64,000 bases of DNA from Patescibacteria group bacterium. GTDB lineage: Bacteria; Patescibacteriota; Microgenomatia; Levybacterales; GWA1-39-11. The stretch spans positions 6,519-70,518 of the forward strand of contig DASZYA010000004.1 of the NCBI GenBank assembly GCA_035545675.1, written 5' to 3'. Made by a program: the position numbers and the translations under genes. The notes beneath the pieces are model-generated. The model saw only the letters and a list, made by a program, of their open reading frames with translations. It ran no database searches and was not told where the DNA came from. Below are positions 24,750 through 45,387 of this stretch, in pieces. The first letter of the stretch is position 1, and the number at the start of each line of letters is the position of its first letter.

Positions 24750-25007
24750 CTAAAATGACCTAACCTTCCTTTTTGCGTCTCTTTTAAAGGCCGATGCGAG
24801 TAATTGTGTTGCTTCTTCCTTTTTTAAAACTCCTTCTTTGATTAATTGACCAATTATTTTATATCTGACCAGGTCTGCTTCGGCTCTCAGATTTTCTCTG
24901 TGTTCGATTTCTCTAGGAGATCTTGGTCGGGGGTCTTGGTATTTTCTGGGTTCACCATGGCATTCTTTTTTCATTTTATTTAAATTCATGAAGATTATTT
25001 TCATCAA
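24750..25007 (-). CDS. small basic hypothetical protein
   Basis: ORF in an operon-like array downstream of the deacetylase; the true start is uncertain, as the N-terminus overlaps 24976..25941. Confidence 0.25.
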   Translation of the reverse strand: MMKIIFMNLNKMKKECHGEPRKYQDPRPRSPREIEHRENLRAEADLVRYKIIGQLIKEGVLKKEEATQLLASAFKRDAKRKVRSF

Positions 25008-25941
25008 TATAATTTAGTAATTCATTTCCGGTTCTATATCCTGGTCTAATTCTAAATAAGAAATAAAGATTGGCAGGATTCTGTTCATTTCCAAGAACCG
25101 TAGAAACAGCGCTTGTAAAGCCAGCGTCTTTTACTACCTTTATAGCCTGCTCATCAAATCCTCCGCTTGGGTATGCAAACGATACAACTTTTATTCCATA
25201 GTTTTTCTCAAGCATGGTTTTGCTTTCATTGACCTCATATTTAACAATTGGTAGAAAGGCGCCTTTTAGATAAACGTGATGAACAGTGTGGGCTCCAATT
25301 TCTACAATCTTACTGTTAATTACATCTTTAAGTTGCGCGTCTGTTAAGAAGTCTGAACCACCAATAAATCCCGGAATTATATAGGCAGTAGCCCGAGCAT
25401 TGTATTTTTTAAGAATTGGAAGAATTACGGTATCAAGATCCCAATGACCATCATCAATTGTTATTACAACAGGCTTTGGAGGTAACACTTTTTTATTCTT
25501 GAGCATGTCATTAAGCTGGCCTGCTGTCAAAAAGTGGTAACCGGCATCGTGCAGGGTTTTAATTTGGGAATCAAATACGTCCGGATTAATATTTAGGGAT
25601 ACTCTTGTTTTATCTTTCTTATCTTGTACGTATTCAACATAATGATACATGAGGATTGGAATCTTAAGGCTAGCCGAGGCCGTTGCGTCTTTTGCAAATT
25701 TTTCCTTGATATCTTTTGGTAGTTTTTTAACATCATTTCTTGGCGTTTCTACTACGGCATGAGTTTGAAAGCTTAAGAATTGATAAATAAATATCCCAAA
25801 GGCTAAAAATAAAAGAAATCTAAGCACACCCACGTGAGTTGCGTGATGACGTGATTTTGTGGTGACCCTTTTTTTGCTAGTTTTTTTGGGTTTTGGCAAA
25901 ACTTTTTTTTCCTTTGTTTTCTTTCTAGTTTTTATAGCCAT
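24976..25941 (-). CDS. polysaccharide deacetylase (NodB-domain) with N-terminal membrane anchor
   Basis: VVITIDDGHWD (TxDDG-type motif 1), a basic N-terminus plus a TM helix. Confidence 0.7.
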   Translation of the reverse strand: MAIKTRKKTKEKKVLPKPKKTSKKRVTTKSRHHATHVGVLRFLLFLAFGIFIYQFLSFQTHAVVETPRNDVKKLPKDIKEKFAKDATASASLKIPILMYHYVEYVQDKKDKTRVSLNINPDVFDSQIKTLHDAGYHFLTAGQLNDMLKNKKVLPPKPVVITIDDGHWDLDTVILPILKKYNARATAYIIPGFIGGSDFLTDAQLKDVINSKIVEIGAHTVHHVYLKGAFLPIVKYEVNESKTMLEKNYGIKVVSFAYPSGGFDEQAIKVVKDAGFTSAVSTVLGNEQNPANLYFLFRIRPGYRTGNELLNYIDENNLHEFK

Positions 25942-25999
25942 AAAATAAGTCTTGCTATATTACCACATGAATTGATCTTGAAAAAGGCTTTCATAATGG

Positions 26000-26398
26000 G
26001 TGTATAATATATTCATGAATGGATTTGTAGGAAATATTGAAAAAGAAACCCTTGAGAACCAAGATTTTAGAAGAGTTCTTTTTACAGGTCAGCATGCTCA
26101 AGTAGTTCTTATGAGTCTTAAGCCAAATGAAGATATTGGTATGGAGGTTCACGAGATTGTCGATCAATTTATAAGAATTGAGAAGGGAAATGGAAAAGTG
26201 ATAATGAATGGAGAAGAACACAAATTAAGTGATGGAGATGCTTTTGTTGTTCCAGCAGGAACTGAGCACAACGTAATCAATGAGTCAGCTGATGCTGAAA
26301 TGAAACTATACACAGTTTATTCTCCACCCCACCACAAGGATGGAACAGTTCACCAAACAAAAGAAGACGCAGAAAAAGATACCGCAGACCACCTATAA
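26000..26398 (+). CDS. cupin-domain protein
   Basis: G(x)5HxH-like MEVHEIVDQFIRIEKGNG...PAGTEHNVIN. Confidence 0.6.
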   Translation: MYNIFMNGFVGNIEKETLENQDFRRVLFTGQHAQVVLMSLKPNEDIGMEVHEIVDQFIRIEKGNGKVIMNGEEHKLSDGDAFVVPAGTEHNVINESADAEMKLYTVYSPPHHKDGTVHQTKEDAEKDTADHL

Positions 26399-26399
26399 A

Positions 26400-26951
26400 T
26401 TATTTAGGTTGGTAATAGAGAAGAATATTTCCGTTTCCAAAAGTCCTTGAGTTAACTAGCTTTAAATCTGTTTTCTTAACTCCTTTAAACAACAACTTCC
26501 CTTCACCTAAAACTACCGGGCTAACCATGAGTCTGTATTCATCAATTAGGTCTAGATTTGCAAATTGTTGGACTATTTGCCCGCTTCCAAAAATAGCCAT
26601 GTCTTTACCCTCTTCTTCTTTAAGTTTTTTAATTGCAGCAGTATCTATTTCATCTATTACAACAGTATTTTGCCAGGTAGCATTTTTAATAGATTTTGAA
26701 AAAACAATTTTTGGAGTTTCGTTCATGAGCTTTGCAACGGTTGGATCATCTTTCAAGGCTCCCTCTGTTGGCCAATAGCTTTTCATTAGGTCATAAGTAG
26801 TTCGGCCAAACATAAGAGTCCCAAATTCACTGGTCTGTTTAATTGCAAATTCATTAAACTCTTCGTCAACTGTATGCCAGTCAATATTGCCGTCAGGCCC
26901 GGCAAAATATCCATCAACCGTCACCATATTAAAAACAATTATCCTTCTCAT
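26400..26951 (-). CDS. dihydrofolate reductase-family (RibD C-terminal-like) protein, second paralog
   Basis: MRRIIVFNMVTVDGYFAGPDG...LMFGRTTYD...AIFGSGQIVQQF. Confidence 0.65.
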   Translation of the reverse strand: MRRIIVFNMVTVDGYFAGPDGNIDWHTVDEEFNEFAIKQTSEFGTLMFGRTTYDLMKSYWPTEGALKDDPTVAKLMNETPKIVFSKSIKNATWQNTVVIDEIDTAAIKKLKEEEGKDMAIFGSGQIVQQFANLDLIDEYRLMVSPVVLGEGKLLFKGVKKTDLKLVNSRTFGNGNILLYYQPK

Positions 26952-27226
26952 TAGTTTTGTTTTCCAAATCTTTTCAATGCGCGTAAATGTGCTTTTTCTG
27001 CTTCTTTTTCTCTGTTGTGGGGATGGGAATGTGCAGTGAGCGAACCTAATAAATGTTCTGTTGTGTGAGCTATATCTTCAACTGCAGCATTGAATGCCTC
27101 TTCATTATCAGTAGAAGGCTTGTTAAATCCTGAGACTTTTCTGACGTATTGAAGAGCTGCTGCATGAACTTCTTCATGTGTTGCTGTGGGTTCAAAATTG
27201 AAAAGATGTTTTATGTTGTGACACAT
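26951..27226 (-). CDS. hypothetical His-rich small protein
   Basis: ORF with ATGA overlap to the upstream gene. Confidence 0.3.
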   Translation of the reverse strand: MCHNIKHLFNFEPTATHEEVHAAALQYVRKVSGFNKPSTDNEEAFNAAVEDIAHTTEHLLGSLTAHSHPHNREKEAEKAHLRALKRFGKQN

Positions 27227-27310
27227 ATAAATAGCTTATAGCTGATAGGTTTTAGCTCGTAGGGAGATTTTAAGCCTTTGATAAATATGTTTCAAGGGTA
27301 TTTTTGTTAA

Positions 27311-27706
27311 TTAATTTTTGAGTTCTTCCTCTTCTTCAGCGTTCCAGGGGGTAATTAGCTGAAAGTAATTTCCATCAGGGTCAGCAAAGGTGGCAATCCA
27401 GAAATTTCCATCCTCTCCCATTGCGTAAGGTTCTTTTACTACCTCTACTCCTTCTATTTCTTTGATTCTTTCAAATTCACCCTTAACGTCTTTTGTTTCA
27501 AAATTAAAGAGTACGCGGTCAGGGTCTTTTGCTTTTCCATGAATCTTGTCATGAAATCCAATGCTTAAGAAGCAGCTCCCTACTAAAAATCCTTTGTAGT
27601 TCTCGTCTTCCATATCTGGCTTCTTTTCAAAAACCTTTTCGTAGAAATCAGCAAGTTTTTTAACGTCCTCTGTTGATAATAATATTGAATTAAAATTTAA
27701 TTTCAT
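27311..27706 (-). CDS. VOC (glyoxalase/bleomycin-resistance/dioxygenase) family protein
   Basis: Size and a beta-alpha-beta(3) module pattern (LLSTEDVKKLADFYEKVF). Confidence 0.55.
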   Translation of the reverse strand: MKLNFNSILLSTEDVKKLADFYEKVFEKKPDMEDENYKGFLVGSCFLSIGFHDKIHGKAKDPDRVLFNFETKDVKGEFERIKEIEGVEVVKEPYAMGEDGNFWIATFADPDGNYFQLITPWNAEEEEELKN

Positions 27707-27773
27707 TTCATTTATATCCCCCGGTTAGATAGCTTCTCTGAAGCATCGAACGGGGCCACGTTGAATGTGTAAG

Positions 27774-28295
27774 CTATTCAACTGTGGCTGCTTTTTTAAT
27801 AGCTTCTAAGTCTAATTTTTTCATTGGCATAAATACTTTTGTTACTGCCTCTGCTCTTGTTGGATCTTTCATGAGCTCATCTAGGATTCTTGGTGTTATT
27901 TGCCATGTGATACCAAAGCGATCTGTACACCATCCACATTGTTCTGCTTCTGGAACTGCTGACAGTTTCTCCCAGAAGTGATCAATTTCTTCTTGAGTTT
28001 CGCATTCAACTATAAAAGATACTGATCCATTAAGTTTAAATTGTTCTAGTGGCCCACCATTTAGTGCCATGAATTTTGATCCATCAAGGGTGTATTCGAG
28101 AGTCATAACTGTTCCCTCTTTGATTTTGGAAATTTCTTCTCCTTCTTTTGTGGCTTTTGTAATGTCTCCGAGTTCTCCGTGGTGAACCCCGCCTGGAGCA
28201 GAATTAAAAGTATCTACGTAGTATTTTGCGGCTTCCTCTCCGTCGCTATTTACAAACCAAATACAAGTAGTCATTCTTCTTACATTATAGCGCAA
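27774..28295 (-). CDS. VOC-family PhnB-like protein
   Basis: C-terminal CGWCTDRFGITWQI hallmark of the PhnB-like/3-demethylubiquinone methyltransferase-like family. Confidence 0.6.
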   Translation of the reverse strand: MRYNVRRMTTCIWFVNSDGEEAAKYYVDTFNSAPGGVHHGELGDITKATKEGEEISKIKEGTVMTLEYTLDGSKFMALNGGPLEQFKLNGSVSFIVECETQEEIDHFWEKLSAVPEAEQCGWCTDRFGITWQITPRILDELMKDPTRAEAVTKVFMPMKKLDLEAIKKAATVE

Positions 28296-28385
28296 GTTTT
28301 GTTAGAAAGAAGTATGAATTTATCAGAGCTTAGGTGTGATTTAGATCATTTATGTCTTTTCAAGCAATTATTAGAATGAAAGCAT

Positions 28386-28796
28386 ATGATACCGGAGAAA
28401 ATACAAAGAATAATTCTTCTAATAGTTCTTGCCTATGAAGGCTTAGGTGGGCTTTTGGGAGGAATACTTTTGGTTTTAGGGCCAGATGGACATTATATGG
28501 ATATGAATATTGAAATTATGCATGGAGCCTTTCCTGACTTTTTAATCCCAGGAGTAATTCTCACTTGTATGGGAGCGCTTACAACAACAGCATTCTTCGC
28601 AGTTCTTAGAAGAAGCAGATATGATTGGCTTCTTGCCGGGTTTTCAATGGGTGGATATATTATTTGGTTTGCAACAGAAATCACGATACTAAGAGAACTT
28701 CATTGGCTTCATATTATGTGGGGAGTCCCGGTTTTAATAGGTGCCTCAATGGTTATTCCAATGCTCCCTTGGTTTAGGAGAAATCTAAGCTCTTAA
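28386..28796 (+). CDS. hypothetical 4-TM membrane protein
   Basis: Hydrophobicity. Confidence 0.35.
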   Translation: MIPEKIQRIILLIVLAYEGLGGLLGGILLVLGPDGHYMDMNIEIMHGAFPDFLIPGVILTCMGALTTTAFFAVLRRSRYDWLLAGFSMGGYIIWFATEITILRELHWLHIMWGVPVLIGASMVIPMLPWFRRNLSS

Positions 28797-29455
28797 ACCC
28801 TTGCGGCGAGAAGGTCTTCCACTAGTCTTTGAGATTTTAAGGCAATTGCGAATTCTGCGCCTTGCCCAGTTTTCTTAAGTGCTTCTTCTATATCTTCTTT
28901 GATACCACTTTTGCTTAAAGTTTCTACAATGTAAATATTTCCGTGATCACGAGTCCCATTTATTTGAATGTTCATTTTTTCTCCTTCTTTTCCATCAATC
29001 GTAATTAGAGGTTTTACTGCCATGTCTGCCCACTCGAAAATCTTAATCATTGTATCTATTGGCCACTCAGAGTTTATACCTGGAAACATAATCACTTGGA
29101 TTTTGGAATTAGGTTCCTCTTCTGGTTGAGTATTATATATTTGAGCAAAGCCGGTTATTCCCATTTGGGCAAAATATCCCTCGTATATATCCCTAACCTT
29201 TGCTGCATTGGGGTCAAAATAGCTTACAAAAAGATTGGGATTTTTTGATTGTTTGTAGAGCTCCTCCACTGTTCCTCTCAATTCATCAGGTTCATCTTGT
29301 AAGCCTGGAAAATAATGGCCATGCGCAAGTCTGTGACGCTTAGCCACATAAGGAAGATATATCCCTTGATTTTGTAGTAGGCCTAAGTTATCCGCGAATT
29401 CCTCTACGGACCATGCGGAAAGCTGCTCCGGTACGTATGTAAGCGTTTCTGCCAT
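28793..29455 (-). CDS. hypothetical protein
   Basis: ORF only. Confidence 0.3.
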   Translation of the reverse strand: MAETLTYVPEQLSAWSVEEFADNLGLLQNQGIYLPYVAKRHRLAHGHYFPGLQDEPDELRGTVEELYKQSKNPNLFVSYFDPNAAKVRDIYEGYFAQMGITGFAQIYNTQPEEEPNSKIQVIMFPGINSEWPIDTMIKIFEWADMAVKPLITIDGKEGEKMNIQINGTRDHGNIYIVETLSKSGIKEDIEEALKKTGQGAEFAIALKSQRLVEDLLAARV

Positions 29456-29505
29456 AAGGAGGTATTATAGCATTTTACTAATCCTATAGGAAATTTAGAA
29501 TGAAT

Positions 29506-30231
29506 TTATTGAAGTTTGGAAAACCAGTCTGTGTATTCTTTATCAACCATATCTCTAAACTTTTCTTCTTGAATACTGTGTGGGGCGCCTTTCAGAAGGT
29601 GGTAGGTTAATTTTGAACTGTCCTTTACCGCATTCTTATAGTTTTGAAGAGTTTGGCGTGGGACGGAATTGTCGAATTCTGATTCGAGAATTAAAATATT
29701 GCCATCAAAGTTATGTATGGCTTCAAGTGCCATCGTATCAGTGGGTTCTCTTTTTTCCGCTCGCCATTCTAAAACGCCTGGATTCTCAGAGCCAGCAAGT
29801 CTTGCAAGTCCTGTAAAGGTTTCTCTTGGATAGTTTGCAGGAACTCTTAAAACTAAATTTTTAACTTTCCTTTTTGATGTAAGAAGCGCAACTAAATATC
29901 CTCCAAGACTTGATCCCACAACACTTATGTTGTCCGGATCAACTCCATCTATTTTTGCAAGATGATCATAAGCCTTTAGGGCATCGCTTAGAAGCTCTTC
30001 ATGGGTTACTGTGTTGATATCGCCTTCGCTATCTCCATGCCCTCTTAGGTCAACCAAAAAACAAATATATCCAAGTTTAGTAAGTGACTCTGCATATTGG
30101 ATGTTTCTTATTCTTTTGCCTGTCCAGCCAGGAATAAAAAGAATTGCGGGGTTTTTGCTCGTTTTGTTTTTAGGAAGAAAGAGAGTTGTTGCTAATTTAA
30201 GACCATCATTTTCTATAAATGAGTTTTCCAT
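29506..30231 (-). CDS. alpha/beta hydrolase
   Basis: GxSxG nucleophile elbow VVGSSLGGYL; HGDSEG. Confidence 0.65.
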   Translation of the reverse strand: MENSFIENDGLKLATTLFLPKNKTSKNPAILFIPGWTGKRIRNIQYAESLTKLGYICFLVDLRGHGDSEGDINTVTHEELLSDALKAYDHLAKIDGVDPDNISVVGSSLGGYLVALLTSKRKVKNLVLRVPANYPRETFTGLARLAGSENPGVLEWRAEKREPTDTMALEAIHNFDGNILILESEFDNSVPRQTLQNYKNAVKDSSKLTYHLLKGAPHSIQEEKFRDMVDKEYTDWFSKLQ

Positions 30232-30246
30232 GAAGCTATTATAGCA

Positions 30247-30753
30247 TTACTGTTCCATTGCTTTGAGGATGCGGTGGATAGTTTTCCAGGTTCTACTGGT
30301 TACCTCTTTTTTGTGATCTCTGTCCATTTTGGCCATAAAGTTGGTTGATTTATCTGTGTTCATGTTAAGAACCGTTGCTATTTCTTTCCTTCTGTCTTTA
30401 AAAAAAGTTACGAGTAAATAATTTGGCGCCTTATCTTCTACTCCTTTGAATGGGTCACTTTTTACAAGCTTTTTTAGATCTTCTTCTGATCTGACAATTG
30501 TCATTCGAGAGAAATCCAATTTTTTAGGAAGATTTTCTTCAATCTTATCTTCTAGTGCTTTTTCATCCGTTTCTTTTGATTCAAAAACTACATTTCCACT
30601 AGCAATAACTGGCTTTACCTTTGTAAATCCTAGGCCTTCAAAGAATTCTGTAAATTTGGGACCACTCATATTGGGGTTTCCTGGTCCAACTCCACGAATT
30701 AGCGCAACATACATCATACATTTAGCCGAGTACGCGTGATAGAAGGAGTACAA
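30247..30753 (-). CDS. DUF1697-family protein
   Basis: YVALIRGVGPGNPNMSGPKFTEFFEGLGFTKVKPVIASGNVVFE matches the DUF1697 N-terminal pattern. Confidence 0.5.
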   Translation of the reverse strand: MYSFYHAYSAKCMMYVALIRGVGPGNPNMSGPKFTEFFEGLGFTKVKPVIASGNVVFESKETDEKALEDKIEENLPKKLDFSRMTIVRSEEDLKKLVKSDPFKGVEDKAPNYLLVTFFKDRRKEIATVLNMNTDKSTNFMAKMDRDHKKEVTSRTWKTIHRILKAMEQ

Positions 30754-31024
30754 GAAGGATGATTGTTAGGATTCCAAAAGTAGCAAGAGATTTAAAAGCA
30801 AGTTCAATTGCGGCTTTTTTCTTCCCGTTAAAATACATTTGGAAGGGATTAAAAAAGAAAATGTAAGCCATGATAGCTGCTGAGAAGGTGAATAAGGAAA
30901 GAACTATTATTGGCATAAATACAGAAGGTTTGTTGTCGATGTGGGGAGCATAAAACATTGTGGATGCAATGATTGATATATAGGCAAGCGCTGCTATTCC
31001 GTTAAGTATTGGGTTTTTGCTCAT
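30722..31024 (-). CDS. small 3-TM membrane protein
   Basis: Hydrophobicity. Confidence 0.3.
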   Translation of the reverse strand: MSKNPILNGIAALAYISIIASTMFYAPHIDNKPSVFMPIIVLSLFTFSAAIMAYIFFFNPFQMYFNGKKKAAIELAFKSLATFGILTIILLVLLLSRVLG

Positions 31025-31026
31025 AG

Positions 31027-31440
31027 CTATTTAAGATACGGTCTTGTTGGCTGCAGAACGCCTACCGCATTTCCTTCTGTATCAAGAATTGAAATGTATT
31101 TCCCAATTCCAGGGATGTCCATTACATCATTTTTTATAGTTCCACCAGCGGCTAATATATCTTTTTTAGCTTGCTCTATGTCATCAACGTTTATTACTAC
31201 ATGTACGGTTTTGTCTTCTGGTTTTGGTACGTGGGTTTCATCGTAAAACCCTCCGTTAATTGTTCCTGGGGTTTTTACCATTCCATTTTCATCAGTGTCA
31301 GAAGTTAGTGCGATTACATAATTACCCATTTCTTCATTTGTTGGTTCCATTCCCCAACCAAAAGCGCTTTTGTAGAATTCTGAAACGCGTTTTGCGTCTT
31401 TGTATGGCATTTCAAAGTGTACAACGGGGTTTTTACTCAT
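31027..31440 (-). CDS. VOC/glyoxalase-family protein
   Basis: VVHFEMPYKDAKRVSEFYKSAFGW... Confidence 0.6.
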   Translation of the reverse strand: MSKNPVVHFEMPYKDAKRVSEFYKSAFGWGMEPTNEEMGNYVIALTSDTDENGMVKTPGTINGGFYDETHVPKPEDKTVHVVINVDDIEQAKKDILAAGGTIKNDVMDIPGIGKYISILDTEGNAVGVLQPTRPYLK

Positions 31441-31463
31441 AAATTTATTATAGCACAGGGTGT

Positions 31464-32258
31464 CTATCGTCCAAGAGCCGTATCCATTTCTCTCCAGCTA
31501 ATCTCTCTGTCTCGAGATGCTTCTAAAAGTAGCTTTACGCTCCTAGAGCTATTGGGGTTAACCTTATCTCTTTTATCTGTTGCGTCAACATTGTGAAGAA
31601 ATCCAAGCCCAAATCTAATGATTCGTCTTGCCTCTTCTTCATCTGGAACATATTCGCCCCAGGCTTCATTTTTTGGATCAATAGCCTCTTTAGGGGGATA
31701 AATCATTGCTTTTAAGACTTCTTCTACTAGAACTTGGGGTGCAGGACAGGAATTAGATTTGGGATTTTTGTTATCCGCAATAAAATGGTTCTTTTTTGCA
31801 GTGTTGTTACCATCAGCAAAATTGTAGGTTTGTCTTTGGGTTTTGGGCTTATCGCTTAACTTGGGATCTCTTACCATTTCGTATGCCACGGCTTTTATTC
31901 CATCTGCCGCCCTTGATGCATCAATAAAATAAGGGGGTAATATGTCAACCGGATTATTTGCTCGCATTCGAAGATACATGGGCATTGCATGGATTGCGTA
32001 GGCAAACTCTTCTAATTGTTTAGGTGTTAGGGGCGTTTCTGAGTAAGTCGATCTGATGTATTTTATTAAGCTTATTGCCTCGTCGTTGGACTGTTGAAAT
32101 TCTGAAAATGCTACTGTGTCTGTAGGGTGTCCTATTCTTCCTGGTAATCTGTTCGGGACAAAGCTTCGATTTTCCTGTAGTTTTGCAATAATATTTCTAC
32201 CGCTTGTATCAAAACCCTCTCTTATTGCATCGCCAATGTGCCTTTCTGTGTATGACAT
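31464..32258 (-). CDS. hypothetical protein
   Basis: ORF only. Confidence 0.3.
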   Translation of the reverse strand: MSYTERHIGDAIREGFDTSGRNIIAKLQENRSFVPNRLPGRIGHPTDTVAFSEFQQSNDEAISLIKYIRSTYSETPLTPKQLEEFAYAIHAMPMYLRMRANNPVDILPPYFIDASRAADGIKAVAYEMVRDPKLSDKPKTQRQTYNFADGNNTAKKNHFIADNKNPKSNSCPAPQVLVEEVLKAMIYPPKEAIDPKNEAWGEYVPDEEEARRIIRFGLGFLHNVDATDKRDKVNPNSSRSVKLLLEASRDREISWREMDTALGR

Positions 32259-32306
32259 AGGGGGATATTCTATAAGAAATCTAGGATTCTTTCAAACTTA
32301 AAGAGG

Positions 32307-32696
32307 TTATTTCTTCTCAGAAATTAACGAGAGTATGTTTCCGGCTGGATCTTTGAACCAGGCTATTGAGCCTCCATCTGGGTTCTTCATAATGCCTTTT
32401 TCATCTGTTTTCATTCCTTCTCCCATGTCATAGTGCTCGAAAGTTACACCTTTTGCTACTAGTTTATCTACTGCTTTTTCTACATCATCTACTAAAAAGT
32501 TAAGAACTGTAAAAGTTGCTGGTTTGTGGTCAGGCTTTGGATAAATCATTCCCATTGCGCCTTGTCCTAGGTGAAGCTCTAATACTCCCATTTCATTGTC
32601 TTTTGTTTCTATTCCAAGGGTTGTGCCATAAAATTCTTTTGCACGTTTTAAGTCATCTGTAGAAAAACTTGAAAAGGTTTTTGTATCTTTAAACAT
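32307..32696 (-). CDS. VOC/glyoxalase-family protein
   Basis: FSTDDLKRAKEFYGTTLG... pattern. Confidence 0.6.
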   Translation of the reverse strand: MFKDTKTFSSFSTDDLKRAKEFYGTTLGIETKDNEMGVLELHLGQGAMGMIYPKPDHKPATFTVLNFLVDDVEKAVDKLVAKGVTFEHYDMGEGMKTDEKGIMKNPDGGSIAWFKDPAGNILSLISEKK

Positions 32697-33106
32697 TATT
32701 CTTTTGCTGAAACATTTACCATCCAGTGGATTCCAAATTTATCTGTTAACATTCCAAAAGTATCTCCCCATGGAGCTTTTGCTAAGGGATAGTCTGCTTT
32801 TCCACCTTCTGCGAGTTTATTAAACCATTCGGTTAACTGTTCCAGGTCTGAGCCAATAAGACTCATGCTAATATTGTCCCCTACATGTACTGGGTGTTCT
32901 GAATTTCCGTCAGCAGCCATAAAAGTGAAGTTTTCTGTTTTTAGCTCTGAGTGCATTGTTAAGTCTTTATCCTCTGGTGCACAGTTTGGATTGCCTTCTG
33001 CGTAAGTTTGGGTTGTTAGTTCTCCACCAAAAATAGATTTGTAGAATTCCATAGCTTCGCGTGTCTTTCCGGTGAAATTTAGATAAGGAAGAAGAGTTGA
33101 TTTCAT
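32696..33106 (-). CDS. VOC-family PhnB-like protein
   Basis: LNFTGKTREAMEFYKSIFGG...GDTFGMLTDKFGIHWMVN. Confidence 0.6.
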   Translation of the reverse strand: MKSTLLPYLNFTGKTREAMEFYKSIFGGELTTQTYAEGNPNCAPEDKDLTMHSELKTENFTFMAADGNSEHPVHVGDNISMSLIGSDLEQLTEWFNKLAEGGKADYPLAKAPWGDTFGMLTDKFGIHWMVNVSAKE

Positions 33107-33206
33107 TAGGAAAATTAGTATAACAAGCAGTTCTTACAAAAACAAGCAAATTCTTCTCGCAGCAAAAATCAGACTCCTTACGACATCTGACTTTTGCTAG
33201 AATGGT

Positions 33207-33620
33207 CTACTTTATGCCATTCTCAGTACTTGTAACATTAAAGTTACTATCAAGTTTAACCGTGACCTGTGAGCCGTCTGACTTTGTCATATGAGCTTCG
33301 TATTTTGCTCCTTCAGCGTCGGTCTCTACACGTTCTATAGTTGCGCCTGGTACTGCTTTTTGTGCTGCCTTTTTGACCTCATCTGCAGTGTCTCCTGTTA
33401 ATAATTCTTCTTTTGTCCCGTTGGCTCCTATGTGGCCGCCTTTACTAGGATCAAAAGTAGAATCTTGTGGAGGTTTTGTACTTTGGGTGGTTTGAGTTGT
33501 GCTATCTGCTGCATTTGCTGAGCCAATTATATTTGCACCAGCAAACATTCCGATAGTAAGCATTAATACACCCATCCCAATTGCCGCTACTTTATTCCTC
33601 ATCCTATCACCTCCTTTCAT
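33207..33620 (-). CDS. secreted PepSY-like domain protein
   Basis: Signal/anchor, then ...EVKKAAQKAVPGATIERVETDAEG..YEAHMTKSDGSQVTVKLDSNFNV. Confidence 0.4.
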   Translation of the reverse strand: MKGGDRMRNKVAAIGMGVLMLTIGMFAGANIIGSANAADSTTQTTQSTKPPQDSTFDPSKGGHIGANGTKEELLTGDTADEVKKAAQKAVPGATIERVETDAEGAKYEAHMTKSDGSQVTVKLDSNFNVTSTENGIK

Positions 33621-33665
33621 TTTTTCAATTATTGCAGGTGGATCTTAAAAACGCCTTAAGAGGAG

Positions 33666-34517
33666 CTATTCGTTTTCATTAATGAATTCGCGAATGAAGT
33701 TTATGCACTCTTCTCTTTCTGTCCAGAAAGGAAAGTGGGCGCTGTTTTCAAATATTCTCATTCTTGAATCTGGAATAAGAGTTGTAAAGTATTCTGTTGC
33801 TTCTGGGGTTGTTTCGTCTATTCTTCCACAAAAAAGAAGCGTTGGAACATTAATATCTTTTAGTTTATTTGAGAGGCTGATATTTGCCGATGGACCATTT
33901 GGTTCAAAGAAGTTTGGGCCAAACATTATCTTTTCAACTTCTGGATTCATCTTGTGTTCTGATTTTAGAACCGCTGTGGGAAGATCCTTTACTCCATATA
34001 GATATTTTTCAAGGAATTCACCCATCGCATTTTTATATTCCTCTGATTCTTCTGGTTGCTTAAGTCCTTTTTGAACACTTTCCGGGAAAGTGTTAATGAT
34101 CTCCTTAATTTGTTTTGTCCAAAGAGGTATATCAAGGAATGGATTTGCCAAGATTAACAATTTAAGTCCCGGAGGGTTTTTAATAGCAAAGTTTGCTGCA
34201 ATTGTTGTTCCCCAGGATTGGCCAAGAATAATATATTCTTTGAACCCAAGGTGTTTTATGAGTGTTTCCAGCTCTCCTGTGTAGTAGTCAAGAGTAAACG
34301 CAGACTTATCAGTAGTCCATTCAGAGTTCCCACAGCCTAGTTGATCATAAAAAACAACCTGACGATCGTTTGCTAAATCTCTAAATGGCTCAAGATAATC
34401 ATGAGGATAAGCTGGCCCGCCGTGAATCACAATAATTGGAGTTTTGTTGCCTTCTCCAACTATTTCATACCAGACTTTTCCCTTGCCTGCATCAATAAAT
34501 CCTTCTGTTGTTGTCAT
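33666..34517 (-). CDS. proline iminopeptidase-like alpha/beta hydrolase (S33 family)
   Basis: IVIHGGPAYPHDY; GQSWGTT nucleophile elbow. Confidence 0.65.
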   Translation of the reverse strand: MTTTEGFIDAGKGKVWYEIVGEGNKTPIIVIHGGPAYPHDYLEPFRDLANDRQVVFYDQLGCGNSEWTTDKSAFTLDYYTGELETLIKHLGFKEYIILGQSWGTTIAANFAIKNPPGLKLLILANPFLDIPLWTKQIKEIINTFPESVQKGLKQPEESEEYKNAMGEFLEKYLYGVKDLPTAVLKSEHKMNPEVEKIMFGPNFFEPNGPSANISLSNKLKDINVPTLLFCGRIDETTPEATEYFTTLIPDSRMRIFENSAHFPFWTEREECINFIREFINENE

Positions 34518-34540
34518 AAAGCGATTATATCAATTTATCT

Positions 34541-34900
34541 CTATCTTTTATTTTCTTCATTCCATTTTGCCTGAGCTTTTATTAGCCTTTGGATTAAATC
34601 AAAAGGAATAGGCTTATTGAGTGGAAAGCGAATTGTTCCTTTGCTCATTTCATAATCTTTTAACTCATCTTTGAATTGTTTTCTAACGGGTTCAAAAATT
34701 GCATAGATTCCAATGTGTGTTTTTGTTTGGGCAAAATAAACTAGTCTACCGTGGTATGAATAAAAAGGCATGCTGTAGCTAATTCTCTCCTCGGCTTCAG
34801 GAACTGTGGTTTTTATAATCTCACGGATTTTAGTAAGACTTTCTTGAACGTTTTTTGGAGAAGCGGCAATATACTCGTCTACTGTTTTATAAGATTGCAT
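34541..34900 (-). CDS. DUF1801 (YdhG-like) protein
   Basis: VDEYIAASPKNVQESLTKIREIIKTTVPEAEERISYSMPFY. Confidence 0.5.
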   Translation of the reverse strand: MQSYKTVDEYIAASPKNVQESLTKIREIIKTTVPEAEERISYSMPFYSYHGRLVYFAQTKTHIGIYAIFEPVRKQFKDELKDYEMSKGTIRFPLNKPIPFDLIQRLIKAQAKWNEENKR

Positions 34901-34903
34901 ATA

Positions 34904-35302
34904 TTATTCAAACCACATCGGCGTTTTATCATATGGATTTGCATGATTATAATTAACAGTTATCTCCTCGTCTTTTTTAATATTTTCTATGGCAGTAAAT
35001 TCAATTACGCCTTCTTTCTCTTTTATTTCATATGTGGCGTTTGGTTTTCTGGTGTGGTTGTATATTGATCCAAAACCTAAAGCAACAGCGGCTTGTTCTT
35101 TTTTCTTGCCAAAGTAGTAAAGATAGGTAATGAGAATGTTGTCATTTATTTCACTTGTGTCGTGCTCAGAAAGCTCAATTATTGGACATATCTCAATTAA
35201 TTCGCCTTTCTTAATATCATCTCTTGCAAATACTCCTCTTTCTGATTTTGCTATATCAGATGGGGCCACATATATTTTATTTGGAGACAAGATCTTATTC
35301 AT
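34904..35302 (-). CDS. SET-domain-like protein (putative protein lysine methyltransferase)
   Basis: IYNHTRKPNATYE (NHSxxPN-like motif) and EEITVNYN (ELTxxY-like). Confidence 0.4.
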   Translation of the reverse strand: MNKILSPNKIYVAPSDIAKSERGVFARDDIKKGELIEICPIIELSEHDTSEINDNILITYLYYFGKKKEQAAVALGFGSIYNHTRKPNATYEIKEKEGVIEFTAIENIKKDEEITVNYNHANPYDKTPMWFE

Positions 35303-35332
35303 GAAGTGATTATAGTAGTTGGAGATTTGACA

Positions 35333-36031
35333 TTACTCTGCCGGATATCCCGGGAACCAATCACCCTTGATGTGTTCTTTTGGAATTCCCATCTTCTCAA
35401 GCATTTCATTTAGTGAATCTACCATTGGTTCGGGACCTGAAACATAGAAAATTGGTCCGCCAGCTGGCGGATTGAAGTCAGGAACTAATTCTTTTACCTT
35501 ATTCTCATCAATATGTTCTGGAGAAAATACATAATTAATTTTTAGATTCGGATTTCTTGTGGATAGCTCCTCTAGTTCATCTCTGAAAACTACATTTTGA
35601 TCGCGATTTGCATATATTAAATTTACATTAATTGGTTTTTTGTCATGATCAAGCTGTCTTAATATTGATCTGAATGGCGTTATTCCAATTCCTCCTGCAA
35701 TGAATACATATTCTAAGTCTGGATTATCCAGGGTAAAGTCGCCTTCCACGTAAGAAATTTCAATCTCATCTCCCTCTTTTAGACTTGCAAGCTTTTTCTT
35801 AAATGAACTTCCTTTGTCTTGTGTAATTCTTGTTGTAATCTGTACGTGGTTTTCATATGGAGCAGCTGCATTTGTAAACCAACGATCAGATCCTCTATTA
35901 TCTGTTGGTTCGTGATGTAATACGTAGTGAAGATATTGTCCTGGAACCCATTCAAGTTTTTCTTGTGGCTCAAAAATAAAAGTGAGGACTCCAGCGGTAG
36001 CTTCTTTTTTCTCTTTGAGCTTGAGGATCAT
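35333..36031 (-). CDS. ferredoxin-NADP reductase-like FAD/NAD(P)-binding oxidoreductase
   Basis: RWFT..AAP (RxYS-like FAD motif) and FIAGGIGITPFRSIL (NAD-binding GxGxxP). Confidence 0.55.
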   Translation of the reverse strand: MILKLKEKKEATAGVLTFIFEPQEKLEWVPGQYLHYVLHHEPTDNRGSDRWFTNAAAPYENHVQITTRITQDKGSSFKKKLASLKEGDEIEISYVEGDFTLDNPDLEYVFIAGGIGITPFRSILRQLDHDKKPINVNLIYANRDQNVVFRDELEELSTRNPNLKINYVFSPEHIDENKVKELVPDFNPPAGGPIFYVSGPEPMVDSLNEMLEKMGIPKEHIKGDWFPGYPAE

Positions 36032-36080
36032 GATTTATTATAGCACCATAGATCAATCCCTTTGGTATACTCTGCTTATT

Positions 36081-36290
36081 ATGAATCTTAAAAACGATAG
36101 TTATGTGATTCACATGGGGACAAAGAATTTCACAGAGAAGTATTATAAAGATGAAAAGGGTTGGTTGAAGATTTCTGCAAAGGGAAAAGAGTTCAGAATG
36201 ACAGCAGAACAGGTGCTTAATCATTTATTGCCTGCTGTTGCCGGGGTAAAGCCAGGATTAATACTCAAAGTAGAACACAAAGAAGAATAG
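36081..36290 (+). CDS. small hypothetical protein (start assigned to internal Met; ORF open from 35982)
   Basis: ORF only. Confidence 0.25.
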   Translation: MNLKNDSYVIHMGTKNFTEKYYKDEKGWLKISAKGKEFRMTAEQVLNHLLPAVAGVKPGLILKVEHKEE

Positions 36291-36292
36291 AA

Positions 36293-36631
36293 TTACTTAG
36301 TTTTCTTTCTTGACCTGGAGGGGATTAAATTACCAATAATGCTTAAGACTGCTCCGAAAACTGCACTTACAACTCCCATCAAAACAAAAAATGGAATTTT
36401 GGTTGCTACAGGATCAGCGCCGTTATAGTTTGCTACCATAAAAACAAAACCCAAGAAAAATCCATATGCCAACCCATTTTTAATTGACTCTTTTCTGTTG
36501 TTGCTAAGATATCCAATTATTAAAGCAGCCAATCCCCAGGGAATTACGGTTAAAACTTGCAGTGTAAGTACTTTTGTCGCCAAGAAGCCTAAGATTATTC
36601 CTAGGATTCCCGTGATAAGTATTCTCTTCAT
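36293..36631 (-). CDS. hypothetical membrane protein
   Basis: 3-4 TM helices. Confidence 0.3.
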   Translation of the reverse strand: MKRILITGILGIILGFLATKVLTLQVLTVIPWGLAALIIGYLSNNRKESIKNGLAYGFFLGFVFMVANYNGADPVATKIPFFVLMGVVSAVFGAVLSIIGNLIPSRSRKKTK

Positions 36632-36996
36632 TACTCTATTGTACGACTTTTTCTAAAGCCAACCAATATTGGTAAAAGAAAAGTTAGGGCGTAATAAAGG
36701 TAAACATCTGGCTTGTAATAAACGCTAGTTGTTGTGAATGCTCTAACAAGGAAGAAATAGTCACAAATAACTGCAATCAAGGTCCATACGATTGCTATTC
36801 CTAGATAATGTTTTATATCTCTGCTCTTTATTTGTTTTATTAGTACCCACAAAGAAACAATAATTCCAATTGGCATTACGAACCAGCCAATAAGATCATG
36901 TGGCACTATGGTAAAGAAAACTATTCCAAGTCCATATCCAATTAGCCATACCATAAACCCCCAAAAAAATGCATCTTTTAAAAATTGTTTGTTCAT
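36631..36996 (-). CDS. hypothetical membrane protein
   Basis: 4 TM helices; ATGA overlap with the downstream gene. Confidence 0.3.
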   Translation of the reverse strand: MNKQFLKDAFFWGFMVWLIGYGLGIVFFTIVPHDLIGWFVMPIGIIVSLWVLIKQIKSRDIKHYLGIAIVWTLIAVICDYFFLVRAFTTTSVYYKPDVYLYYALTFLLPILVGFRKSRTIE

Positions 36997-37185
36997 AGTA
37001 AATTCCTCTTTTTAATTTCTTCTAAGATTTTCCCGCCAAGAGGACGGCAGCTACAGTTTTTTGCATGTGCCAGATGCCACTCTATTCTTTGGTCAAGCGT
37101 TGGATTTTTTGGCATTTTGTTTTTTGTGTGCCACTCAGCATTTATTTTCATACCAAGAGTTTATCCTACAAGAAAGCAAAATGAT

Positions 37186-37201
37186 GTGATCTTAATCACT
37201 C
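37186..37201. promoter_or_regulatory. CRP/FNR-type palindrome TGTGA-N6-TCACT
   Basis: A direct read: tgtgatcttaatcact. Confidence 0.45.
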
Positions 37202-37630
37202 AAAGGGGTTGTTGTTTTTCATGAATTGATAGGATTTCTCTACTAACTTGGTAAGTGTATCTAGGTCTACATCTGATAGCTTATTTATATAAAGGCAGCC
37301 TCCCATTCCGCCACTGGTTTTGTGCTTGCCCAGTTTTTTCAATAGTGCCTCGCTCTCATTGTTGCCGTGCATAATATATAGAGTTAAATTGGCTTTTCTT
37401 GGGGAGAATCCAACGAGCATCCAGTCTCCTTCTTGGGAACTTTTTTTGGATTTGTAATGATATTTACCAAAACCAACAATACTTCCACCCCACATCACTG
37501 CTTTTTCGCCAGTAATGTTTTCAAACATTTCTAGCAATTTAAGGGCGTCTTTTCTTTTTTCTTCAGGTTCAATAGTATTTAAAAAATCTTTGGGGTCTTG
37601 GGTTGTGACTTTTGTTTTTAACTCTGCCAT
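37196..37630 (-). CDS. DUF1801 (YdhG/YdeI-like) protein, second paralog
   Basis: DPKDFLNTIEPEEKRKDALKLLEMFENITGEKAVMWGGSIVGFGKYHY. Confidence 0.5.
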   Translation of the reverse strand: MAELKTKVTTQDPKDFLNTIEPEEKRKDALKLLEMFENITGEKAVMWGGSIVGFGKYHYKSKKSSQEGDWMLVGFSPRKANLTLYIMHGNNESEALLKKLGKHKTSGGMGGCLYINKLSDVDLDTLTKLVEKSYQFMKNNNPFE

Positions 37631-37695
37631 ACGGGAATTATATCAGATATTCTGCTCAAGCTATTTAGCTTTGATTAAGGTATAATAAACACACA

Positions 37696-38169
37696 ATGGC
37701 ATTTAATAGAGATAGAAATCGTGGCGGTGGACATTTTTCCGGCGGAGGAAGAAGAGATGATAGACGAGAACGTCCACAAATGTTTCCAGCAACCTGCAGT
37801 AACTGTGGGAAAGCATGTGAAGTCCCCTTTAGACCAACTGGAGATAAGCCGGTTTTGTGTAGAGATTGTTTTAGACAAAATGGAGGACCAAGAGAAAGAA
37901 GAGATGATAGGCCTCGTTTTGAGCCAAGACATGATGGTCCACCTCCTCCACCACCATTCCCACCACATATTAAAGAAGAGCTTGATTCTATAAATCAAAA
38001 GGTGGATAAGATCTTGGATATTTTACTTGCTGCAACAGAAATGCCAGAGGAAATAAAAGATGAGGCAATTGATGCTGTTAATGAAGTATTTGAAGACGCT
38101 CCGGTAGAAGTAAAAGCAAAAACCCCCAGAAAAAAGACTTCAAAAGCTACTCCTTCAGAAGAAGTATAA
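37696..38169 (+). CDS. Arg/Gly-rich zinc-ribbon protein (CxxC-x17-CxxC) with acidic C-terminal helix
   Basis: CSNCGKACEVPFRPTGDKPVLCRDC, flanked by RGG/RRDD low complexity. Confidence 0.4.
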   Translation: MAFNRDRNRGGGHFSGGGRRDDRRERPQMFPATCSNCGKACEVPFRPTGDKPVLCRDCFRQNGGPRERRDDRPRFEPRHDGPPPPPPFPPHIKEELDSINQKVDKILDILLAATEMPEEIKDEAIDAVNEVFEDAPVEVKAKTPRKKTSKATPSEEV

Positions 38170-38176
38170 GATACCT

Positions 38177-38250
38177 TGCTCCCCCGCGTGGACTCGGACC
38201 ACGAACCTTATTCTTAACAGGAATCTGCTCTACCATTGAGCTACAGGGGA
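38177..38250 (-). tRNA. tRNA-Asn (anticodon GUU)
   Basis: Hand fold of the reverse complement: acceptor TCCCCTG/CGGGGGA, D-arm GCTC-AATGGTA-GAGC, anticodon loop CTGTTAA, T-arm CGTGG-TCCGAGT-CCACG, discriminator G. Confidence 0.7.
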
Positions 38251-38342
38251 ATGTCCTGACAATTGACAACTAACAATTGACAATTGACGCTCGTAACATT
38301 GAATTATATAAAACCTGAAGCTGATTGTAAATTACTAAGCGG

Positions 38343-39158
38343 TTAGCCTGTTATGAATACGGGAATCCAGGATGGGTAGTTTGCATGTAGTAAGGCAAAA
38401 TACAAAATAAAGTCTACCGTGAGATGAATTGCAATTACATAAACAAGATCATTTGTCTTGTTGTAAACCCAGCCTTGCAGGAAACAAAATATAGGAACAA
38501 TAAGAAACCCCCACTCTCTGAATCCCAGCTCGTAAAGAAAAGACGTAAAGACAATGGTTGTAGCAATATTCGCAGTCATAAAGGGAAAATAACGCTTAAG
38601 GATTCCAAGAGTTGTACTTACAAAGAAAAGTTCATCCCAAATTCCTAGAAGATTTGTCCCCAAGAATAAAACAAAAAGGTTCATGAAGCCCGGCATTACT
38701 GGCCAATTGTGATAAACCCCAGAAGTTTTTAGATAAAAAGGAATCATAAGATAAGCAAGTACAAAAGCAAAAAGGATATAACCGTAGCGAATAGGCTTCC
38801 ATTTGTGAGGAATATGAAAGTTGTATTTGATTTTATCTTCTTTGTAGAAAAATCGGGATATAAGAAAAGGTAGAATTAGTGCTAGTCCCAGTGCTCCACC
38901 CATGGCTACAATATGCTCCGGGCTGATATTGGTTGAAATTGGGGTCACACCCATAATGGAAATGCTTATAAAAGGAAGAAATAGCTCGCGAGCGGCTGTT
39001 CTCTTGTTAAGAATCCAAGTAAGTGCCGTTCCACACACTATGGCAATCCACCCTGCTATATGCTGTTGGAGACCTATTAATAGAACTCCTGAGAGACATA
39101 TAAAAAATAGACTAATATATTTTGCGTAAGTTTGGTTTTTCATTTGCTTAAGATTCAT
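38343..39158 (-). CDS. polytopic membrane protein, possibly CPBP-family intramembrane protease
   Basis: 8 TM helices; WDELFF...FTSFLYE...IAIHLTVD loosely resemble the CPBP EExxxR/FxxxH/HxxxD motifs. Confidence 0.35.
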   Translation of the reverse strand: MNLKQMKNQTYAKYISLFFICLSGVLLIGLQQHIAGWIAIVCGTALTWILNKRTAARELFLPFISISIMGVTPISTNISPEHIVAMGGALGLALILPFLISRFFYKEDKIKYNFHIPHKWKPIRYGYILFAFVLAYLMIPFYLKTSGVYHNWPVMPGFMNLFVLFLGTNLLGIWDELFFVSTTLGILKRYFPFMTANIATTIVFTSFLYELGFREWGFLIVPIFCFLQGWVYNKTNDLVYVIAIHLTVDFILYFALLHANYPSWIPVFITG

Positions 39159-39208
39159 GAATTATATGAAATTGCGTGCGTAGTTGTAAATTGTTAGGGT
39201 GATATAAT

Positions 39209-39460: not shown

Positions 39461-39473
39461 TTAACAAATAATT

Positions 39474-40456: not shown

Positions 40457-40484
40457 AGAGTCAAATATATACTTCTTGTAGATA

Positions 40485-44547: not shown

Positions 44548-44549
44548 CT

Positions 44550-44885: not shown

Positions 44886-44887
44886 AT

Positions 44888-45385: not shown

Positions 45386-45387
45386 AT

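Follow-up and report, generated by a model that had tools for sequence, protein, structure and literature searches.

Patescibacteria reportedly often carry horizontally acquired genomic islands, and in groundwater members of the phylum glyoxalase genes are among those transferred (PMC12455944). Flexible genomic islands, or plasticity zones, of the "additive" kind occupy a fixed slot between core genes, often next to a tRNA; their content varies among relatives through one-gene gains and losses and has an accessory stress or detoxification flavour. Chromosomal integron arrays (clusters of attC sites lacking integron-integrases, CALINs) hold short unrelated genes that point in one direction and are replaced singly, and genes of the vicinal oxygen chelate (VOC) type are typical of such cassette arrays. 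Here we describe a block of short genes at 26.0-37.6 kb of a 64,000-nt stretch (the window) of contig DASZYA010000004.1, which belongs to an NCBI metagenome-assembled genome labelled 'Patescibacteria group bacterium' (GCA_035545675.1). An initial annotation of the window had taken the block for an acquired or rapidly expanding accessory region rich in xenobiotic and stress-associated paralogs, unexpected in a minimal genome. The observation of a run of small genes is confirmed and its interpretation is partly supported.

The ORF (open reading frame) listing and Pfam scans support 23 short genes as credible, with 21 on the minus strand and two on the plus strand, in agreement with the roughly 25, nearly all on one strand, that had been counted at first. 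The block is probably a vertically inherited, flexible neighbourhood in a fixed slot of a soil Patescibacteria (candidate phyla radiation, CPR) chromosome, and not a recent island. It resembles plasticity zones in its slot between core genes, its tRNA neighbour, its variable content and the one-gene differences between relatives. It differs from them in that it has no mobility gene, att repeats or compositional signature, that much of its content is old and shared with a sister species at core-like divergence, and that its anchor gene, PhnB_a, is conserved across Patescibacteria. The groundwater islands come from the same phylum, with glyoxalase genes listed there too, but they were called by composition- or comparison-based predictors (PMC12455944), whereas the present block is native in composition and syntenic in the sister.

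At the protein level, five products are related to the PhnB-like family (PF06983, '3-dmu-9_3-mt') and the VOC glyoxalase-bleomycin-resistance superfamily (PF00903). They pass the family cut-offs, and the CGWC and FGIHW motifs are present; for relatives this close no activity has been demonstrated, and the name of the Pfam family is a label with historical roots. GenBank already carries annotations for the block genes (locus tags VHE53_00630 to VHE53_00720, proteins HVT00729 to HVT00760) under Prokaryotic Genome Annotation Pipeline (PGAP) names such as 'VOC family protein' and 'dihydrofolate reductase family protein'. In the literature we found nothing describing this neighbourhood, and nothing relevant on the combination of DUF1801, DUF1697 and glyoxalase genes, on PF06983 in CPR bacteria, or on VOC genes in the Southlakia transposon-sequencing paper. 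The block is ordinary in kind and opens no long-standing question. The analysis corrects the reading of the block as a xenobiotic island that a minimal genome acquired recently: in CPR genomes of only ∼1 Mb, too, clusters of small genes of the VOC, DUF1801 and cupin kinds can be ancient, retain synteny and be subject to purifying selection.

The slot between tRNA-Asn and the deacetylase gene

The slot extends from a tRNA-Asn (GTT) gene (38178..38250, minus strand; ARAGORN and Rfam), downstream of dnaG-rpoD, to a segment carrying deacetylase, NUDIX, hexokinase, yggT, msrA, clpB and ruvBA genes. The core anchors upstream of the tRNA are rpoD (46026-47246, minus strand; Sigma70 domains) and dnaG (47361-49151, minus strand; TIGR01391 model). 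The left boundary is a polysaccharide deacetylase gene (24976..25941, minus strand; PF01522), whose sister counterpart is 76-80% identical and stands in the same position, followed by NUDIX and hexokinase genes.

The sister species was reached via hexokinase homologues (66% hexokinase identity; GCA_035549315.1 and GCA_964585445.1, loci L003, L004, L021 and L104). Its slot has the same boundaries and a length of 14.9 kb from tRNA-Asn to deacetylase. With primes for the sister copies and the gene names used below for the window, the order is 188 aa, GNAT, 193 aa, RibD_C'', DUF2975, HTH_26, memb100', DUF1801_b', 167 aa, HD, SET', DUF6958, abH', PhnB_b', VOC_c', VOC_b', unk258 (40%), zf (opposite strand), 165 aa, unk220', memb', PhnB_a', VOC_a', DUF2277', abH314, RibD_C', cupin' and deacetylase', and then NUDIX' and hexokinase'. 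Of the 23 window genes, 15 are also present in the sister, and 13 of these follow one another as they do in the window; VOC_b and unk264 have changed places, and both memb100 and the zinc-finger boundary gene have moved elsewhere. The latter gene, zf_Tbcl_2 (37696..38169, plus strand; PF23477, E 1.7e-16), has its 47% homologue mid-block in the sister (L021:7641-8195, between unk258 and unk220'), and this shift of position marks a rearrangement between the two.

Proteins shared with the sister (n = 15) are 40-91% identical, with a median of 77% and a mean of 75%, vs. a mean of 81% for flanking core proteins (n = 13; means averaged by hand from the sister comparison). At the DNA level the identity is 72-82% both inside the block and in its flanks. 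A strain-specific recent block, as first suspected, does not agree with 15 of 23 genes found in the sister at flank-like divergence between the same tRNA-Asn and deacetylase boundaries. The accessory, variable character suspected along with it does hold. Eight genes occur in the window only (abH_S9, DUF1697, PepSY, DUF1801_a, FNR, two membrane proteins and a 52-aa ORF) and about 11 in the sister only.

A remoter relative (L005, hexokinase identity 51%) keeps the frame: rpoD, tRNA-Asn, 7.5 kb of small genes, NUDIX, hexokinase, YggT, MsrA and RuvBAC. Its slot is filled with ∼12 unrelated small genes, among them GIY-YIG, AAA_28, L-PSP, 2-Hacid_dh, PNPOx, GNAT and tRNA_bind, and contains no VOC gene. 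Conserved flanks with differing content between them are seen in the window, in the sister (L104) and in L005, with 23, ∼27 and 12 genes per slot, respectively. Conservation of gene order across the whole lineage had been named as evidence against a recent island. The order is kept in the sister and in distant sub-blocks such as VOC_a-DUF2277-RibD_C (L023). The slot content of L005 is wholly different, and the block content is not conserved as a set across the genomes compared.

GTDB representative genomes were scanned with the anchor gene PhnB_a (27774..28274, minus strand, 166 aa), a VOC-fold protein with the CGWC signature (PF06983, E 9.5e-34; 91% identical in the sister). The scan returned 15 further loci at 69-73% identity; Woesebacteria, Saccharibacteria and Paceibacteria are among their labels. 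In 8 of these 15, PhnB_a has a PhnB-like partner immediately upstream. A tRNA-Asn gene was found 60 bp-1.4 kb upstream of PhnB_a in L006, L008, L013, L015, L018, L019 and L020, and 8.8 kb upstream in L010; in L006, L008, L014, L015, L018 and L019 the PhnB pair or PhnB_a is preceded, at a distance of 0.6-5.3 kb, by rpoD, together with dnaG where the locus reaches that far. L018 is collinear with the window from 54.0 to 46.0 kb and continues with rpoD, tRNA-Asn, a 93-aa ORF, the PhnB partner and PhnB_a. The conserved arrangement of rpoD, tRNA-Asn and PhnB pair is a positive result in its own right. Twelve of the 17 GTDB loci (L006-L008, L012-L018, L020 and L022) are titled 'uncultured Gammaproteobacteria' or 'Pseudomonadales'; the gammaproteobacterial labels are probably wrong, given the RpoD identity of 91% and the collinear yifB-dnaG-rpoD segment shared by L018 and the window.

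Other block families recur beside PhnB_a. In L006, L009, L010 and L012-L017 we found homologues of DUF1801_b (61-72%), DUF1801_a (35-46%), the SET-domain protein (36-52%), the cupin (60%), DUF2277 (51%), VOC_c (56%), memb100 (41-45%) and RibD_C (30%). A Pfam census of 150 ORFs near PhnB_a in 14 genomes counted PF06983 22 times (14 by construction), Glyoxalase 10, DUF1801 7, DUF2975 4, SET 3 and OmdA 3. Because the same families recur near PhnB_a homologues in 14 other genomes, the clustering of these genes is not due to chance. For PhnB_b, the nearest metagenome relatives from the Joint Genome Institute (JGI) are 56-65% identical and lie on low-GC contigs, of which L023, L027, L029 and L042 carry further block genes; L023 has PhnB_b (65%), VOC_a (55%), DUF2277 (66%) and RibD_C (48%) in the window order. 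On contigs with a GC content of at least 0.55 and a length above 4 kb, PhnB_b relatives mostly stand as a single gene alone.

PhnB_a orthologues from six other genomes average 84% identity vs. 69% for RpoD, and the two are uncorrelated; these loci were retrieved through exact 7-mers. The window and sister PhnB_a is an outlier at ∼72%. This conservation argues that PhnB_a, at least, is not a dispensable accessory gene, and it suggests a more central role than 'accessory detoxification'.

The differences between window and sister fall on unit boundaries, gene by gene. DUF1801_a in the window and the unrelated DUF6958 in the sister fill the same place, which extends exactly from the SET stop codon to the TGATATAAT box of abH. 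The PepSY promoter-plus-gene unit sits exactly between the abH stop codon and the conserved PhnB_b promoter region, where the sister has 45 bp. The simplest explanation of this turnover would be homologous recombination in conserved neighbouring genes with DNA of related cells. The neighbourhood probably started from one PhnB-like VOC gene, or a pair of them, 60 bp-1.4 kb downstream of tRNA-Asn, and in this lineage the slot would then have grown to ∼23 genes by accretion of single genes and by one-for-one replacement at gene boundaries. The interval from tRNA-Asn to the deacetylase gene is well defined and variable, and could be used for population-genomic study of gene turnover in Patescibacteria.

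Alternative explanations

We considered whether the block could be one detoxification operon under common regulation, with enzymes that process a single substrate step by step. The 21 genes on one strand, the median gap of ∼23 bp and several stop/start overlaps are in line with an operon, terminator-like sites are no commoner than chance, and the sub-blocks VOC_a-DUF2277-RibD_C and the PhnB pair recur elsewhere. Tight spacing, however, is genome-wide here, two genes are inverted, single genes have been replaced by unrelated ones between the sister species with their neighbours undisturbed, and the families have no known shared pathway. The expression signals, too, look unlike those of one operon. 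Shine-Dalgarno motifs are nearly absent genome-wide, and a TAnAAT box (often TGnTATAAT) begins 10-16 nt before the ATG and ends ∼6 nt from it. The box was found at 26 of 63 ATG gene starts (41%) vs. 3% of all ATGs (p = 2e-23); at -16 to -10 it precedes 10 of 19 block ATG starts vs. 16 of 44 elsewhere. Examples include the starts at 10129, 11900, 12333, 19896, 21395, 24046, 29455, 30231, 31440, 34517, 36031, 37630 and 59909. Within the block, a TAnAAT/TGnTATAAT box of its own precedes the ATG by 5-12 nt in 14-16 of the 23 genes. The remaining genes either touch or overlap the gene before them, in line with translational coupling, or lack any signal that could be recognised. A generic sigma-70 promoter scan gave no more matches than shuffled sequence. 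The layout looks leaderless throughout the genome, and from these motifs we infer that the block consists of ∼16 separate units of 1-3 genes rather than one operon. A single pathway operon is thus quite unlikely.

A recently acquired mobile island integrated at the 3' end of tRNA-Asn, close to what was first proposed, would explain why the block begins 550 bp from that 3' end, why eight genes are confined to the window and why the slot content of L005 is wholly different; the reported frequency of islands in the phylum fits as well. A flanking tRNA does lie beside the block, as an inserted island might have, but the integrase looked for with it did not turn up: Pfam scans of ORFs of at least 75 aa at 19.4-47.2 kb found no integrase, recombinase, transposase or relaxase, with a few short ORFs at 23.7-45.96 kb outside the scan. 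No second copy of the 26-nt 3' segment of tRNA-Asn exists in the window with up to 3 mismatches allowed, and no long flanking direct or inverted repeats were found. Megablast of the whole block gave no plasmid or phage match, and a scan of viral contigs with PhnB_a gave none either. Ten proteins tested were singletons at 90% identity, apart from the sister copy and one 175-aa Logan fragment. Look-ups of exact proteins gave short Logan contigs of run SRR12170518 and nothing else, with no match for the deacetylase.

Composition argues in the same direction. GC content is flat at ∼0.37 along the block, and GC content at third codon positions (GC3) is 0.30 in the block vs. 0.28 in the rest of the window. 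The dinucleotide delta* of the block is the lowest in the window, and window-only and shared genes have the same composition. The relative synonymous codon usage (RSCU) distance is 0.065, vs. 0.040 ± 0.009 for random gene subsets with a null maximum of 0.074; a PEP-synthase (phosphoenolpyruvate synthase) gene, taken as positive control, reached 0.207. Codon usage and the leaderless promoter layout are likewise native, the sister retains most of the block at the same tRNA-Asn boundary, and the adjacency of tRNA-Asn and PhnB is itself conserved in seven other genomes. The mobile-island reading is largely refuted, and a recent integration is very unlikely. Of the acquired or accessory region first described, the accessory, variable and tRNA-adjacent nature remains; the hallmarks of mobility are absent.

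An integron-like cassette array (CALIN), with promoterless cassettes captured at attC sites, is brought to mind by many short, functionally unrelated genes in the same orientation, by the VOC-type genes among them and by gene-by-gene turnover at sharp boundaries. This explanation is highly improbable. The scanned ORFs include no IntI-type recombinase, most gaps (-32 to 100 bp, median ∼23 bp, only 4 of them at 67-100 bp) are too short for an attC site of at least 55 bp, and between genes no motif recurs except the -10 box, with no recurrent inverted-repeat element. In contrast to the cassettes of CALINs, the genes of the block carry promoter-like boxes of their own (14-16 genes), and attC-like repeats have neither presence nor room.

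Recent tandem duplication, with a rapidly expanding array of paralogs, could be suggested by five VOC-fold, two DUF1801 and two alpha/beta hydrolase genes within 12 kb and by the adjacency of two VOC genes (32307-33106). The VOC proteins, however, are only 23-31% identical pairwise (BLASTP E 7e-5 to 0.02), and the DUF1801 pair and the hydrolase pair give no mutual BLASTP match at E ≤ 10. The copies have sister orthologues at 77-91% identity and relatives in other genomes at 45-73%. Because each copy has closer relatives in other genomes, the paralog splits long predate the lineage. On these protein comparisons recent tandem duplication is excluded; the rapid expansion proposed initially finds no counterpart in the identities, and an expanding array has hardly any likelihood left. 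Least credible of all is an assembly or binning artefact that attached foreign DNA to a Patescibacteria contig, as a metagenome-assembled source and a 2.8-kb high-GC gene nearby (42.1-44.9 kb) might suggest, since 29348-45445 is matched 100% by independent Logan contigs of run SRR12170518 except for a 35-bp gap at 36265-36299 (which splits L001 from L002; L002 and L103 overlap by 29 nt), a sister genome from a different sample joins the same block to the same core genes, and composition and promoter layout are alike in block and flanks.

Several points weigh against a vertically inherited neighbourhood with gene-by-gene turnover. The comparison rests on one close and one intermediate relative, and gain and loss of the eight window-only genes are indistinguishable. 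PhnB_a identity does not track RpoD (71% between window and L018 at RpoD 91%, and 84% at RpoD 69% elsewhere), and because of this, exchange among Patescibacteria is conceivable. The RSCU distance is ∼2.7 standard deviations above the random-subset mean, although inside the range. The slot adjoins a tRNA and the differences between window and sister are mostly tRNA-proximal, which also fits additive island growth via an unseen integrase. The promoter calls are sequence patterns, with the generic sigma-70 scan at shuffled level. Functions are assigned at family level, and the nearest structures are hypothetical proteins from structural genomics.

A broader generalisation can be stated, namely a phylum-wide slot directly after dnaG-rpoD-tRNA-Asn with a PhnB-type anchor that is more conserved than sigma-70, in which leaderless promoter-plus-gene units are swapped one for one between relatives by recombination, with stop codons and promoters as the boundaries. 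We regard it as unlikely. If it were true, the slot would function like a cassette array but without an integrase, and it would give minimal cells a changeable kit against toxic small molecules derived from their host or community.

Genes of the block

Median gene length is 136 aa in the block vs. 228 aa elsewhere in the window. The families named initially were recovered by Pfam at the expected positions: five VOC-family genes, two DUF1801 genes, a cupin, a second RibD_C gene, DUF1697, two alpha/beta hydrolases and an FNR-like gene. A DUF2277 gene, a SET-domain gene and a 52-aa ORF had been overlooked. The product classes are five VOC-fold proteins, cupin, RibD_C, two hydrolases, FNR-like, SET methyltransferase, DUF1801, DUF1697, DUF2277 and five membrane or secreted proteins; no Pfam family could be assigned to unk220, unk264 and the five small membrane or secreted proteins. 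Judged from family assignments, most products would be small proteins of the cytosol that act independently of one another in binding or converting small molecules, accompanied by small envelope proteins, and the set reads as a miscellaneous kit, not a pathway. The label 'chemical stress/detoxification' for this set may apply, but we regard it as rather doubtful. Comparison with the sister and with an independent gene call moved three starts, to ATG 26015 for the cupin, ATG 28274 for PhnB_a and ATG 30714 for DUF1697.

The block begins at its deacetylase side with a Cupin_2 protein of 127 aa (26015..26398, plus strand; PF07883, E 2e-16), also called as 127 aa in the sister, where it is 86% identical; a TGTATAAT box stands 6 nt ahead of its ATG at 26015. 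The first proposed start of the block, 25991, belongs to a spurious antisense ORF (25991-26221, minus strand) within this gene. All genes that follow are on the minus strand unless noted. The RibD_C or dihydrofolate-reductase-family protein (26400..26951, 183 aa; PF01872, E 1.4e-24; HVT00729.1; sister 87%) has a start that overlaps the DUF2277 stop; the other RibD_C copy of the window lies outside the block (19896-20414). The DUF2277 protein (26951..27226, 91 aa; PF10041, E 9e-36) is 73% identical in the sister and has homologues of 49-66% in the same neighbourhood of L014, L023, L027 and L076.

All five VOC-fold proteins, at the starting positions 27311, 27774, 31027, 32307 and 32696 given at first, exceed the Pfam gathering cut-offs of 20.6 or 24 bits (PF00903/PF06983), with 37.5, 116.8, 34.0, 41.6 and 49.7 bits. 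VOC_a (27311..27706, 131 aa; Glyoxalase/VOC fold, PF00903, E 3e-9) has homologues with 83% identity in the sister, 55% in L023 and 48% in L042. VOC_b (31027..31440, 137 aa; Glyoxalase/Ble-like_N, PF22677 and PF00903; sister 77%, L027 45%) matched PDB entry 2R6U and Rv0577. VOC_c (32307..32696, 129 aa; Glyoxalase/VOC fold, PF00903, E 2e-10; sister 79%, L013 56%) has a start that overlaps the stop of PhnB_b. The two genes described as PhnB-like are so: PhnB_a at 27774 carries CGWC, PhnB_b at 32696 carries FGIHW, and both match PF06983. PhnB_b (32696..33106, 136 aa; PF06983 and PF00903) is 91% identical in the sister and matched PDB entries 1U6L (E 1e-21) and 3OMS, the latter named 'PhnB protein'. 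The nearest PDB entry to PhnB_a is 1U69, a hypothetical protein (E 7e-24).

Between PhnB_a and VOC_b lie a small membrane protein of 136 aa on the plus strand (28386..28796; no Pfam match; sister 76%, same position and orientation), the uncharacterised unk220 (28793..29455, 220 aa; no Pfam match; sister 77%), an S9/DLH-like alpha/beta hydrolase (abH_S9; 29506..30231, 241 aa; PF00561, PF00326 and PF01738), a DUF1697 protein (30247..30714; PF08002, E 1e-25) and the small membrane protein memb100 (30722..31024, 100 aa). A scan of JGI metagenomes found no relative of unk220. The hydrolase abH_S9 is window-only, with no sister match by tblastn, and has a TGCTATAAT box 6 nt ahead of its ATG. The DUF1697 gene is likewise absent from the sister; its length of 155 aa agrees with the independent Logan gene call. 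The protein memb100 has no Pfam match and 40-49% homologues in the sister (relocated), L010 and L015.

The uncharacterised protein unk264 (31464..32258, 264 aa; no Pfam match; sister 40%) belongs to a rare family. A full HMMER search of 1.84e9 proteins gave 47 representatives, with invariant residues D, R, R, E, P, R, G, G, N and F plus an S-C-P motif; no Pfam or PDB relatives of the family were found. Word-indexed searches that started from unk264 alone or from a three-sequence profile recovered nothing beyond the window copy and a single paralog in the sister, and a scan of genome contigs gave no match; the genome of the window is not one of the GTDB representatives. Two copies exist in the sister (L003:428-1204 and 8759-9511), and of the second copy the window retains only an 85-aa remnant at 23773-24030, beside NUDIX. 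AlphaFold models of unk264 (two-sequence alignment; predicted local distance difference test score, pLDDT, ∼35) and unk220 (single sequence; pLDDT 36) were unusable.

Upstream of PhnB_b is a secreted or membrane-anchored PepSY-like protein (33207..33620, 137 aa), a window-only insertion of a single gene. The ORF named initially is present at these positions; the family call is not firm, as the PF03413 match is sub-threshold (E 7e-4, 20 bits vs. a cut-off of 24). It is followed by abH (33666..34517, 283 aa), an alpha/beta hydrolase of the proline-iminopeptidase family (PF00561, E 3e-25; sister 70%), and by the window-only DUF1801_a (34541..34900, 119 aa; PF08818, E 3e-19), with 46-57% homologues in L009, L017, L027 and L029. 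The SET-domain protein (34904..35302, 132 aa; PF00856, E 2e-17) has counterparts with 79% identity in the sister, 52% in L012 and 36% in L009. The FNR-like oxidoreductase (NAD_binding_1; 35333..36031, 232 aa; PF00175, E 9e-15), named 'FAD-dependent oxidoreductase' by PGAP, is window-only and was not found in the sister slot.

At the tRNA-proximal end stand two window-only small membrane proteins (36293-36631, 112 aa, and 36631-36996, 121 aa), which overlap by stop and start and have no significant Pfam match and no sister match by tblastn. A possible 58-aa ORF (36114-36290, plus strand; no Pfam match), called in the Logan assembly, lies between the FNR-like and membrane-protein genes. The next ORF, of 52 aa (36993..37151), is window-only and without Pfam match; it appears to have homologues in L019 and L027, judging from tblastn similarity that came via the antisense frame w36985_37224. 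The block ends with DUF1801_b (37196..37630, 144 aa; PF08818, E 1.7e-7), with identities of 74% to the sister copy, 72% to that of a Woesebacteria genome (L009) and 61-63% to those of L006 and L016.

Flanks and other features of the window

To the right of the block are zf_Tbcl_2, tRNA-Asn, Rce1-like, DUF4342, Crp, DUF998, a high-GC PEP-synthase-like gene, rpoD and dnaG; to the left are polysaccharide deacetylase, NUDIX, a eukaryote-type hexokinase, YggT, MsrA, ClpB and RuvB/A. The interval from rpoD to tRNA-Asn (38251-46025) is a second variable one, with 7.8 kb here vs. ∼60 bp in L018 (L018:8970-9106) and L019. It also holds ORFs of 190 and 197 aa beside the PEP-synthase-like, DUF998, Crp, DUF4342 and Rce1-like genes. 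The PEP-synthase-like gene (42184-44547, plus strand; region 42100-44900) has a GC content of 0.55 in a 0.37 genome, a GC3 of 0.565 and the codon distance of 0.207 given above, and forms its own Logan contig with a 29-nt overlap with the neighbour contig. We dropped the idea of a strain-specific recent insertion for this gene, as the sister carries a high-GC PEP-utilising gene at the equivalent place (L104:1-208; 40% identical over the 63 aa seen), next to an Rce1-like gene with 87% identity.

The eukaryote-type hexokinase gene (21968-23179, minus strand; PF00349 and PF03727) has ∼50 homologue clusters, one of them in Daviesbacteria. At the left edge of the window, a VirB4-like conjugal-transfer ATPase gene of the CD1110 family (119-1297, plus strand) followed by a peptidoglycan hydrolase gene suggests a type IV secretion locus. 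Short intergenic tandem repeats were found at ∼12935-12973, upstream of 16309 and 17148, at ∼57680-57706 and at 38256-38290. Their units are (AAGATTA)n before ruvB, GATACTT-like, (TATTCGC)n and GACAATT, and they are sited upstream of genes or beside the tRNA.

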